Numbered from the stretch's first letter, positions 2,156 through 58,689 are shown. The stretch: DNA of 64,000 bases from a bacterium (GCA_021786945.1 JAJYMK010000003.1:151299-215298); one strand, 5' to 3'. The notes: generated from the letters alone by a model not told the origin. Numbers and translations: made by a program.

Positions 2156-4264
2156 ATGGCCACATCACAACATTATCCATTAGAAAAAACAAGAAATTTC
2201 GGAGTCGTTGCCCACATCGATGCGGGTAAAACAACTACATCCGAAAGAATTCTTTTCTATACTGGTGTTTCCCACAAAATAGGTGAAGTGCACAAAGGAG
2301 AAGCTGTCATGGACTGGATGGATCAGGAAAGAGAAAGAGGTATTACAATTACTTCCGCCGCTACAACTTGTTTCTGGGTTCCTAGCTATAGGCACGGAGA
2401 TAAAAATTTTGAACACAGATTTAACGTTATTGATACCCCGGGACACATCGACTTTACTATTGAGGTTAAAAGATCTCTGCGTGTTTTGGACGGCGCCGTT
2501 GTTGTATTTGACGGTGTATCCGGTGTGGAACCGCAGTCCGAAACCAACTGGAGATATGCGGATGAATATAATGTACCGAGAATTTGTTTTATAAATAAAA
2601 TGGACCGATTGGGTGCCAGTTTTGAAAATAGCTTTAAATCAATCAGGGAAAGATTGAATCCAAATGCGGTTGCCCTTCAGCTTCCTATAGGATCTGAAAG
2701 TGCTTTCCAGGGCGTAGTTGATTTGCTCAGAATGAAAGCCTATACATTTGAAGGCGATAAGGGTGAAAATATTATTGAATCGGAAATTCCGGAAAATATG
2801 AAAGAAGCCGCCGCTACATGGAGGCATGAGCTTATCGAAAAAATTGTCGAAAATGACGACAAAATGATGTCCGATTATTTGGAAGGAAAAGAGCCTTCTT
2901 TAGAAGATTTGAAAAGAGTTTTGAGAAAGGCTACATTGGCCGTGAAATTAATCCCGGTTTTTACCGGTTCTTCACTGAAAAATAAAGGCGTGCAATTAAT
3001 GCTTGATGCGGTAGTTGATTATTTGCCGTCTCCATTGGATCTGCCTCCAACAAAAGGTATTGATCCAAAAACCGGCAATGAAATTCAAAGGCCTGCTTCG
3101 GATGATCAGCCGCTTACCGCTTTAGCCTTTAAGATAGCCGCAGATCCTTTTGTAGGTAGTTTGACATTCTTCAGGGTTTACGCCGGTGTTTTGAAAAAAG
3201 GAAGTTATATTTTAAATTCAACAAAAGATGTAAAAGAAAGAGTCGGCCGTATCGTTCGAATGCACGCCAATCATCGTGAAGAAGTTGATGAAATTTTTGC
3301 CGGTAATTTGGGTGCTATTGTTGGTTTGAAAGATACTACGACCGGAGATACTCTTTGCGACGAAGCCAGCCCGATTATTTTGGAAAAGATTTCAGTTCCG
3401 GAACCGGTTATTTCCATGAAGATCGAGCCGAAAACAAAAGCTGACCAGGAAAAAATGGGCGTTGCTTTGAGAAGGCTTTCCGAAGAAGATCCGACCTTCC
3501 GCGTTAGCGGCGATGCCGAAACAGGAGATACTATTATTGAAGGTATGGGTGAATTACACTTGGATGTATTGGTGGAAAGAATGAAGAGAGAATTCGGAGT
3601 TCAGACAAATGTCGGCAGGCCGCAGGTTGCCTATAAGGAAACTATCAAGAAAGATGCCGATGCTGAAGGTAAATATATCAAGCAGTCCGGAGGTAAGGGA
3701 CAGTACGGTCATTGCCGAATTAAGATTGAACCGACCGAAAAAGGAAAAGGATTTGAATTTGTTAACGATATTAAAGGAGGTGCAATTCCGAAAGAATTTA
3801 TCGCTCCTATTGAAAAGGGTGTTGTGGAAGCTATGTCTAAAGGTGTGGTTGCCGGATTCCCGATGGTAGATATAAAGGTGACTTTGTACGATGGATCATA
3901 CCACGATGTAGACTCTTCCGAAGCCGCTTTCAAAATTGCAGGATCTATGGCTTTCAAATCTGCAGCGTTGAATGCGAAACCAATTCTTCTCGAACCTATT
4001 ATGAAAGTGCAGTCTTTGGCTCCGACTGAATACATGGGTGATATAACTGGAGATTTCAATTCCAAGAGAGGTAAGATTGAGGCTATGAGCGACAGGATGA
4101 ACATAAAAGTTATTGATGCCTTGATCCCGCTTTCCGAAATGTTCGGATATGCAACCAAATTACGTTCTATGACTCAAGGCCGAGGAAACTTCACGATGGA
4201 ATTTTCTCACTACGATGAAGTTCCTGCGAACGTAGCTACTCTTATTAAAGAGGGTAAGAAATAA
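2156..4264 (+). CDS. fusA: Elongation factor G
   Basis: The G-domain motifs AHIDAGKTT and DTPGHIDF are present, and the length is 702 aa. It sits in the str-operon position. Confidence 0.97.
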
Positions 4265-28035: not shown

Positions 28036-28066
28036 TAAAACTCCCTGTTTTAAACAGGGAGTTATT
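28036..28066. terminator. Bidirectional terminator between convergent genes
   Basis: AAACTCCCTGTTTtaAAACAGGGAGTTATTTTATTT. Confidence 0.6.
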
Positions 28067-28555
28067 TTATTTGCGGCGAACGAAGATCCATTTACTGTTG
28101 ACACCCCAGACGCTCTCGGGATTTCCGTTATTACCATGAAGGATAAGGGTATTTCCGTCTCGTTCAATACCAAATGCTCGTGCGGAATTTTTTTCTCCTA
28201 AAATAGCCAACATCGCTATATTCAGATATTCACCCGAAGGTTGATTTTTATATTGCAGGCGAAGTTGCGGACCAACTTCCGGAGGACACAGCTCGAGATC
28301 TAATTCTTTGGCCCTCTTGTAGATGCTTGATCTGGTGGTATTACTTTTGAATCCTAGATCAGCAGGAGAAACAATTACCAAATTTACCTCTTTTTTATTC
28401 TTACTTACGCAAAAAGCGGCTCGGCCGAGAATGTCATTGGCCGATTCACCGATTTTCAGGCAGAGATTTTTGAAGGCTCTGCGGAAGTCGTCGGCAGTTT
28501 TAAGACCCGTGCCGAGCTTAACAATTTTCCATATAGGAAATTTGTTGGCACCCAT
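28067..28555 (-). CDS. Hypothetical protein of 162 aa with atypically high GC (about 43% by eye)
   Basis: Its own SD (GGGGGT) and promoter-like sequence. I recognise no domain. Confidence 0.45.
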   Translation of the reverse strand: MGANKFPIWKIVKLGTGLKTADDFRRAFKNLCLKIGESANDILGRAAFCVSKNKKEVNLVIVSPADLGFKSNTTRSSIYKRAKELDLELCPPEVGPQLRLQYKNQPSGEYLNIAMLAILGEKNSARAFGIERDGNTLILHGNNGNPESVWGVNSKWIFVRRK

Positions 28556-28634
28556 ACTGTTACCCCCCGATTTTATATTAAGTTCTAATTAAATAGTAAA
28601 ATAAACAAATATTTTTGTCTAAGTATGTTTTTGT

Positions 28635-28660
28635 AAAAAAACGCCCCGGTAGGCGTTTAT
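28635..28660 (-). terminator. Rho-independent terminator (minus strand), directly after the small ORF
   Basis: Minus strand reads AAACGCCuaccggGGCGUUUUUUU. Confidence 0.6.
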
Positions 28661-28740
28661 AGCTTACCGGGGCTGGTACGGCACCCGTTCGAGCAGTGCG
28701 CCACGGGGCGCAGCATGTAGCGTTTCTTCAACATGAACAT
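28657..28740 (-). CDS. Candidate 27-aa small ORF (MFMLKKRYMLRPVAHCSNGCRTSPGKL) in a GC-rich intergenic islet
   Basis: Strong SD (GGAGGTG) 7 nt upstream of the ATG. GC is about 55% locally. Its stop lies inside the terminator stem. Not in the ORF track because it is under 60 aa. Confidence 0.25.
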   Translation of the reverse strand: MFMLKKRYMLRPVAHCSNGCRTSPGKL

Positions 28741-28812
28741 GTGTGCTCACCTCCAATTTTGATTAAAGAACCGGATAGAAATATACCCCGTTTTTATTTT
28801 TAAGTCAATTTT

Positions 28813-40546: not shown

Positions 40547-40903
40547 AAGTATTGGCACTAATAAGCCGGATTCTGTTTCGTTTAAAAACGGACAACAATT
40601 TATCTGGGCCGTTAATTACTTAACGGCTCTAGCGGCACATCCCTTGCGGGATACGGCCTTGCACTTGGGTAAGGATTTAGCCGTTTCACCCCAGCTTTTT
40701 TGTCTCTATAGCTGGATTAGACCAATTAGCTTGAGATTAGGTCTGCCCGATCTTTTCAAAACGGGCCGTCACTGCTCGCACCTCTATATTACTATCGATG
40801 GGTGTTACCCACTACCCCGCTCTTTGTTGCAAGCAACAAAGAAGTGTCCGGACTTTCCTCTCCGGTTAAAAACCGAAGCTGTTGTTTAAGGTACCAATAC
40901 TTT
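40545..40903 (-). ncRNA. rnpB: RNase P RNA, bacterial type A
   Basis: The minus strand contains the P4 5' strand GAGGAAAGUCCGGACAC, GGGUAACACCC, ...GCCCAGAUAAAUUGUUGUCCG...ACAGAAUCCGGCUUAUUAG, and a P1 helix (AAGUAUUGGUAC pairing with GUGCCAAUACUU). Each has a clear counterpart in E. coli M1 RNA. Confidence 0.9.
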
Positions 40904-58615: not shown

Positions 58616-58686
58616 TGCCGGGTCGTCTAACGGTAGGACATCGCCCTTTGGAGGCGAGTATCGGGGTTCGAGTCCCTGCCCGGCAG
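58616..58686 (+). tRNA. tRNA-Gln (anticodon UUG)
   Basis: Cloverleaf: acceptor TGCCGGG pairs with CCCGGCA. D-arm GTCT...GGAC. Anticodon stem TCGCC/GGCGA with loop cTTTGGa (anticodon TTG). T-arm CGGGG-TTCGAGT-CCCTG. Discriminator G, no encoded CCA. An extended -10 (TGTGATAAT) lies about 30 nt upstream. Confidence 0.85.
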
Positions 58687-58689
58687 CTC

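Follow-up and report, generated by a model that had tools for sequence, protein, structure and literature searches.

The DNA analysed here, referred to as the window, is a stretch of 64,000 nt from a bacterial genome (GCA_021786945.1, JAJYMK010000003.1:151299-215298), and the element in question is a GC-rich islet in the intergenic spacer at positions 28556 to 28812, read on the minus strand. At its 5' end lies a sigma-70-like promoter, TTGACT-17-TATATT (28808-28780, minus strand, with the -35 element at 28808-28803 and the -10 element at 28785-28780), which matches the consensus at 10 of 12 positions; it was absent from the initial annotation of the locus and was found by a scan. Just 3' of the -10 element the 5' untranslated region (5'UTR) carries the motif GGTTCTTTAA (28763-28772, minus strand), and this is followed by a Shine-Dalgarno (SD) sequence, GGAGGTG (28754-28748, minus strand), 7 nt 5' of the ATG at 28740, whose duplex with the anti-SD is calculated at -10.6 kcal/mol. 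The open reading frame (ORF) comprises 27 codons and a stop (28740-28657, minus strand; stop at 28659-28657) and encodes MFMLKKRYMLRPVAHCSNGCRTSPGKL; direct reading confirmed both this ORF and its SD as first annotated. Codons 8-20 (28719-28681, minus strand) specify Y-M-L-R-P-V-A-H-C-S-N-G-C, the core that defines the peptide family described below. An intrinsic terminator closes the unit (28673-28635, minus strand), consisting of the hairpin GCCCCGGUAAGCUAUAAACGCCUACCGGGGC (28673-28643), a G and a T7 run (28641-28635), and the predicted transcript is of approximately 135 nt. The hairpin spans the final six sense codons and the stop, with the UAA in its loop; the initial annotation had correctly placed the stop inside a GC-rich hairpin followed by T7, but the AAACGCC/GGCGUUU stem that it gave is weaker than the stable one, GCCCCGGUA...UACCGGGGC (-20.1 kcal/mol; helix CCCCGGUA/UACCGGGG), the pairs of which are all retained in 7 sequences of the window's clade. 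In related loci (given L numbers here) the promoter is also kept, as a -35 TTGAC and a -10 TATAWT in the window, L003, L008, L010 and L013, and the 5'UTR motif recurs as the variants GTTCTTTAA, GTTCTTAAGG and GTTCTAAGG across the window, L003, L008, L009, L011 and L013. Downstream of the islet on the same strand is a gene for a 162-aa protein (28067-28555, minus strand).

The islet had been described as having about 55% GC over 250 nt. A GC-rich islet does exist, but the entire 257-nt spacer is only 39.3% GC, its promoter and 5'UTR being AT-rich and host-like, and the rich part extends over about 110-125 nt (55.2% GC for 28636-28760 and 60.9% for 28642-28751). The latter is the highest-GC 110-nt stretch in the whole 64 kb, for which the mean is 35.6%, and this is far beyond chance.

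Contigs syntenic with the window were reached via the downstream 162-aa protein, and hence the comparison with one of them, L003, is free of any bias from searching with the peptide. Three flanking proteins of L003 are 80-81% identical to those of the window, and identity at their four-fold degenerate sites is down to 37-50%, effectively saturation. The 27-aa peptide nevertheless does not differ at all between the two (100% identity), the 8 nucleotide differences, spread over 7 codons, being synonymous without exception (8/8), and the same differences read in the other five frames alter 3-8 residues, the antisense frames not being conserved. L013 encodes the identical peptide with different codons and in a different downstream context. 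These comparisons indicate that the window peptide is under strong purifying selection; the contrast of synonymous with non-synonymous change that had been suggested for the small ORF thus came out in favour of coding, and the earlier option of a small peptide holds insofar as the ORF is a genuine selected coding sequence. The islet is an autonomous, self-contained, SD-driven 27-codon micro-gene under selection.

Further members were sought with back-translated degenerate DNA patterns and then with a sequence profile. The back-translated pattern found nine metagenomic loci. The strict pattern PVAHCSNGCR gave 0 matches in GTDB, and a relaxed pattern gave seven among the GTDB species representatives, two of them true (in a Saccharibacteria metagenome-assembled genome, or MAG, and in a MAG labelled Brocadia); the other five were rejected as out-of-frame chance matches in GC-rich genomes. 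The Saccharibacteria version, MKRYMLRPIAHCSNGC and a stop, has 16 aa and its own terminator, and a scan of viral contigs found a 17-aa version, also with its own terminator, on a phage-like contig. A profile of the sequences found matched some 50 small predicted proteins (given P numbers below), and an exhaustive HMMER pass over 1.84 billion representatives yielded 133 cluster representatives at E <= 1e-3. All share a near-invariant core, [KR]-[YWF]-M-L-R-P-V-A-H-C-x-x-G-C, or more generally [KR]-[YWF]-[MT]-[LI]-[RP]-[PRAT]-V-A-H-C-x-[EDNGS]-G-C, of which H-C-x-x-G-C is the most conserved part. Either side of the core there is free variation, the N-terminus running to 2-12 residues ahead of the aromatic and the whole stretch past the second Cys being variable; many of the ORFs stop directly after the final Gly-Cys, and the stop may lie 0 to >20 codons past the core. 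At invariant residues the 22 distinct DNA units draw on every one of the 6 Leu, 6 Arg and 4 Pro codons, and pairwise identity within the core falls from 0.85 at positions 1 and 2 to 0.42 at third positions. Every unit with an in-frame start (21/21) has an SD stronger than the 5th percentile of background. Members are spread over Patescibacteria, Saccharibacteria, anammox planctomycetes, anaerobes with Rrf2-type oxidative-stress operons and the phage-like contig, and together they form a previously undescribed, unannotated cross-phylum family of tiny peptides. Two tandem-repeat proteins, P0187 and P0209, were judged unrelated to the family because the latter (L034) derives from a spliced gene model in a eukaryote-style assembly; their five tandem 14-residue repeats of MLNPITHCSDGSK, in what are eukaryote-derived models, resemble the bacterial core MLRPVAHCSDGC, which is a curious likeness.

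Searches for known families gave nothing at the islet. The peptide had no matches in Pfam, NCBIfam, the PDB sequences or, by tblastn, plasmids, and the core motif string was absent from the searchable literature, in which searches on Rrf2 and small ORFs and on small proteins of Patescibacteria brought up no description of such a family. The best Rfam 15 scores over the islet were 17-23 bits against thresholds of 39-80, and ARAGORN found no tRNA or transfer-messenger RNA at the locus. In gathering mode Rfam reported only an RNase P RNA and a tRNA elsewhere in the window and nothing relevant in 12 related loci (a group II intron lies elsewhere in these), and so the known non-coding RNA that had been allowed for as an alternative was not found at the islet, in the window or in those loci. 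The RNase P RNA (class A; 40548-40897, minus strand) scores 104.6 bits against a gathering threshold of 100, which fits a divergent Patescibacteria genome, and the tRNA is a tRNA-Gln (58616-58687, plus strand). Features of a type I toxin were looked for in the peptide and no hydrophobic stretch was present, the peptide being basic and hydrophilic (K5, K6, R7, R11, H15, R21, K26) and unlike a membrane peptide, so that the small toxin among the earlier options is a weak candidate.

The initial annotation had also proposed that the ORF is a leader-peptide attenuator of the 162-aa gene, in which the segment CGCCCCG within the ORF would pair with the CGGGGCG arm of the terminator and so form an antiterminator. 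That pairing can indeed form in the window (-18 kcal/mol; z = -1.9 against shuffles), where the stop also lies inside the terminator, but it is not conserved across relatives: in L009, L015, L021 and L031, which have other terminators, the duplex is no better than in shuffled sequences (z -0.2 to +1.1). No mutually exclusive folds emerged from the alignment of the clade either, RNAalifold giving no alternative helix and supporting the terminator alone (covariation term -0.77). There are no runs of regulatory codons in the window ORF, and it is the peptide itself that is conserved. In L006, which is equally syntenic (its neighbouring protein is 77% identical), the whole module of promoter, ORF and terminator is absent while the 162-aa gene and its promoter are retained, and so the micro-gene is not an attenuator of that gene. 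The reverse is seen in L008 and L013, where the 162-aa gene is missing and the micro-gene is followed directly by a convergent HI0933-like flavoprotein gene. The 162-aa gene itself has a promoter-like site separate from the micro-gene, TAGACA-17-TACTAT (28593-28621, minus strand), and an SD, and its GC content is 43.4%, all of which agrees with the promoter, the SD and the approximately 43% GC first noted for it; an aligned CTTTGACAAAG element before the gene is kept in L003, L010 and L006. This indicates that the 162-aa gene is expressed independently and that the micro-gene is not needed for its expression, and the classical attenuator is, for practical purposes, refuted by the comparison.

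The 162-aa protein belongs to a large, wholly unannotated family of Patescibacteria with 559 matches, most of them longer, at about 198 aa, and bearing an additional variable segment at the N-terminus. Its AlphaFold2 model is confident (predicted local distance difference test score, pLDDT, 92.7; predicted template modelling score 0.88), and a Foldseek search with the model gave no significant match in the PDB, the best having E = 0.04 and a template modelling score of about 0.3-0.4 with a weak C-type-lectin-like resemblance. Beyond the gene, between it and a convergent 413-aa HI0933-like gene, lies a bidirectional terminator (28039-28063), a hairpin of 11 perfect base pairs, AACTCCCTGTTT-N-AAACAGGGAGTT, with T-rich sequence to either side.

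The codon usage of the micro-gene is highly atypical for its host. In the window ORF 20 of the 24 degenerate codons end in G or C, often as the rarest synonym, and its codon-typicality of 0.172 lies below that of all 5,000 random host windows of 27 codons (minimum 0.227); the peptide could be encoded with anything from 28% to 65% GC and is actually encoded with 59%. Throughout the clade the GC content at third codon positions is 0.83-1.0 in the core versus 0.27-0.39 for the host, a bias that other lineages lack. Mere import of GC-rich DNA does not account for it, because the promoter and 5'UTR of the same unit are AT-rich, and the horizontal acquisition that had been suggested for the islet is not borne out, with the promoter and 5'UTR host-like and the G/C-ending bias persisting in a clade whose flanking synonymous sites are saturated. 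Conserved mRNA structure was considered as a cause of the G/C-ending codons and rejected, RNAalifold backing nothing beyond the terminator. The persistence of the bias within the clade does suggest selection at the level of RNA, and the transcript might have its role as an RNA, structured or with a dual function, through base-pairing for instance, with the ORF secondary. Such a role would fit the unit's own promoter and terminator, its standing as the most GC-rich 110 nt of the window, a minus-strand fold that beats shuffles (z = -2.7) and the recurrence past the core of a hairpin with a UAAAC-containing loop in any reading frame. It is nevertheless very improbable, given that third positions are near saturation family-wide while the amino acids are invariant, that the covariation concerns the terminator only, that no Rfam family matches and that the opposite strand folds roughly equally well.

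The relatives of the micro-gene occur in several settings. Terminator-type units, found in the window's clade, L009, L015, the Saccharibacteria MAG and the phage-like contig, have hairpins of -20 to -30 kcal/mol followed by 5-7 U and starting 5-7 nt after the last core codon, with the stop codon before, inside or after the hairpin. The terminators that follow the core comprise at least 5 unrelated hairpin sequences, those of L009, L015, L021 and L031 differing from that of the window clade. In units of the KEGC type the micro-ORF was the first cistron of an oxidative- or nitrosative-stress operon at all five loci examined, the genes 3' of it including Rrf2, Fer4/AF_0155, Hcp, SufCD, rubredoxin, ferritin, flavodiiron protein, desulfoferrodoxin and rubrerythrin. 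These units have in common a palindromic promoter, TTGACAAATGA(N)TCATTTGTCA, whose palindrome overlaps the -35 and -10 elements (visible in L024 at about 3925-3965 and in L032 at about 2930-2965) and probably serves as operator for the Rrf2 regulator, the gene of which lies just 3' of it; several predicted proteins have spurious FLLTNDT.VVSL N-termini because this promoter has been translated. After the core, in whatever reading frame, KEGC-type units carry the hairpin GG(G/A)CA-CGACNNUAAAC-UG(C/U)CC, the translation of which in differing frames accounts for the recurrent tails SWARRKTA, SWGTTLNYP and SRTRL, and the loop of the window terminator, AGCUAUAAAC, resembles the loop of this hairpin. 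Planctomycete-type units lie 8-25 nt upstream of (in one case 2.2 kb from) genes for mutually homologous DUF1360-like membrane proteins with a CxxCxxHW motif. These proteins (L025 4129-4431, L028 3155-3457 and the reverse strand of L016) are of about 100 aa, are 51-68% identical to one another and have C-x-x-C-x-x-H-W in common, and P0163 looks like a deletion that has fused the micro-ORF to the C-terminus of one of them. The KEGC and planctomycete groups have the micro-ORF in a co-transcribed type of setting and L008 and L013, of the window clade, do not.

Two loci show the micro-gene in other states. L023, from a 2.28-Mb genome, has two copies 4 kb apart, at 4082 and 8122, and between them are transposase fragments and a group II intron (RF02005, 178 bits) together with its reverse transcriptase. 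In L014 (1-160) and L007, which share an identical unit, the promoter, the SD and the first three codons have been lost, and the remainder, TLKKHYMLRPVAHCSNGCSTSPGKL and a stop, keeps its terminator and stands in frame right after the TAA of an upstream PMT_2-like gene, with a switch of a Ser codon from TCG to AGC; reinitiation at Met9 might allow this remnant to be translated, or it might be just a leftover that now serves the PMT_2-like gene as its terminator.

A very short, highly conserved, Cys-containing peptide might also be the precursor of a ribosomally synthesised and post-translationally modified peptide (RiPP) or of a peptide-derived cofactor, the enzymes that modify its Cys/His core being encoded elsewhere in the genome. 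Iron-sulphur proteins of the Fer4/AF_0155 type do follow the micro-ORF in L026, L032 and L033, and a radical S-adenosylmethionine gene lies two genes upstream of it in L024. Against this, no maturation enzyme was found consistently beside the micro-gene, the neighbourhoods differing between lineages; the window clade, Saccharibacteria and phage versions stand alone in small genomes; and the leader can be as short as 10 residues, so that a precursor of this kind seems improbable.

The chief competing explanation is that the peptide acts in cis while still in the ribosome. The core would stall or slow the ribosome from within the exit tunnel, possibly in response to a small molecule or to redox state, and a ribosome sitting on the last core codons would cover the 5' arm of the hairpin and either block termination or change initiation at the next gene, in the manner of TnaC, SpeFL or pyrBI. 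The family is like such arrest leaders and attenuators (TnaC, SpeFL, SecM, pyrBI) in having a short, SD-preceded ORF at the 5' end of an operon, a conserved block with free flanks, and a stop beside or inside a hairpin or terminator that the translating ribosome would melt. The contiguous invariant block with a stop 0 to >20 codons beyond it, the unrelated hairpins, at least 5, at the same short distance past the core, the ORFs of L009 and L015 that run through the terminator in pyrL fashion, and the position as first cistron between an operator-like promoter and Rrf2/Fer4 genes, or shortly before a DUF1360-like gene, are all consistent with this; rare codons occur all along the window ORF and would make the ribosome slow down, and extreme conservation across phyla would fit an interaction with the universally conserved ribosome tunnel. 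The family differs from those systems in that it also occurs stand-alone with a convergent downstream gene, has no conserved antiterminator and is conserved across phyla, whereas known arrest peptides are, to our knowledge, lineage-specific. In L008, L013 and L009 the gene 3' of the micro-gene is convergent, leaving no target in cis, and the peptide is nonetheless conserved, in L013 identically through different codons. The promoter of the 162-aa gene is moreover conserved, with the gene persisting without the module in L006, and the terminators are very strong, with no conserved alternative structure. We consider action in cis possible but doubtful.

The reading that we favour, with a probability of about 0.45, is that the autonomous, translated micro-gene makes a trans-acting small His/Cys peptide with a metal-binding or redox role tied to oxidative stress. 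Two observations suggest action in trans, namely that the peptide is still selected in L008 and L013, where a target in cis is absent, and that minimal stand-alone versions exist. Metal or redox chemistry is suggested by the invariant His, the two Cys, the Gly and the Ala before the His, together with the stress-operon settings, the CxxCxxHW membrane proteins downstream of planctomycete-type units and the lack of a predicted independent fold. An AlphaFold2 model of one family member with a multiple sequence alignment had a pLDDT of 65 with the core as coil and was in itself uninformative; a coil core is what is expected for a metal- or partner-dependent peptide. Tiny proteins of stress regulons and dual-function small RNAs are known, among them MntS, MgtS, SR1/SR1P and SgrS/SgrT, and the micro-gene is like these in that a tiny ORF, overlooked in annotation, is carried on a short transcript from its own promoter to its own terminator, with metal or redox stress co-regulation in other lineages. 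We know of no sequence similarity between MntS, MgtS, SR1P or SgrT and the window peptide, and the window family differs from them in being far shorter (16-27 aa) and much more widely conserved.

As to how such a trans-acting peptide might work, its core invites comparison with nickel superoxide dismutase (NiSOD; SodN, PF09055), in which all of the Ni ligands come from the first six residues (PMC2234264) and the SodX protease exposes His1 (PMC2234264, PMC8346466). The NiSOD preprotein, MLSRLFAPKVKVSA|HCDLPCGVY, and the window peptide, MFMLKKRYMLRPVA|HCSNGC, have the His-Cys-x-x-x-Cys spacing in common. An Ala at position -1 is invariant in the family, whose leaders would have 10-17 aa (median 14), and NiSOD leaders have 14-17 and end in SA, the cleavage of the family peptides being predicted by this analogy; an association with oxidative-stress genes is also shared, in several lineages. 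By this model a leader of about 10-17 residues, ending in the invariant Ala, would be cut off to bare an N-terminal His-Cys-x-x-Gly-Cys, and the hook so bared would chelate Ni or another thiophilic metal through its N-terminal amine, a backbone amide, two thiolates and the His side chain. The candidate processed forms of the window peptide, with His15 first, would be HCSNGCRTSPGKL and HCSNGC. If the model holds, the hook needs six residues only, which would explain why the sequence after the second Cys is unconstrained and merely dictated by the terminator hairpin. The likeness to NiSOD is an inferred proposal on mechanism and not a claim of family membership: hhalign aligned the family with NiSOD in the hook register, weakly (P = 0.007, probability 6%), and homology is not demonstrable. 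That the family consists of free-standing metal hooks, with the HCxxGC peptide as a minimal superoxide-detoxifying or metal-handling cofactor, is a speculative extension of the analogy that we consider rather unlikely.

Several observations weigh against a trans-acting metal or redox peptide, and against the hook in particular. The resemblance to NiSOD spans only about 7 residues; position 5 is Gly and not Pro, Gly7-Val8-Tyr9 are missing and nothing is conserved past Cys6. The four-helix-bundle Sod_Ni domain is lacking, the peptide ending 0-8 residues past Cys6, and among the Pfam-annotated neighbours at 8 loci there was no S24/S26 peptidase (SodX-like) gene and no Ni-transport gene beside the micro-gene. 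In P0161, P0164, P0168, P0178 and P0184 the His is replaced by Arg. The ORFs of L009 and L015 have no stop before the terminator, so that their transcripts would be non-stop, which is strange if the peptide is to be released, and the near-exclusive use of rare G/C-ending codons in the window ORF is unexpected for a simply well-expressed small protein. Most members were found by peptide patterns, and the family-wide excess of synonymous change (and any ratio of non-synonymous to synonymous rates) is accordingly subject to ascertainment bias, which the L003 comparison is not. Finally, the conserved block with free flanks, the hairpin fixed at 5-7 nt past the core and the 5'-proximal place in operons fit a nascent peptide acting in cis equally well.

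Gene callers apply length cut-offs that ORFs of 16-30 codons do not reach, which makes the family essentially invisible in annotations, and yet its core is more conserved than most proteins of the same genomes. The oxygen tolerance of bacteria of the candidate phyla radiation (CPR) is poorly understood, and a trans-acting metal or redox micro-peptide, if this reading is right, would be an added component of oxidative-stress defence, notably in these bacteria. Were the peptide instead a nascent-chain regulator, it would be the first sensor of that kind with conservation across phyla, and if the free-standing hook were correct it would be the smallest natural superoxide dismutase-like catalyst, present in genome-reduced CPR bacteria, anammox planctomycetes, anaerobes and a phage.

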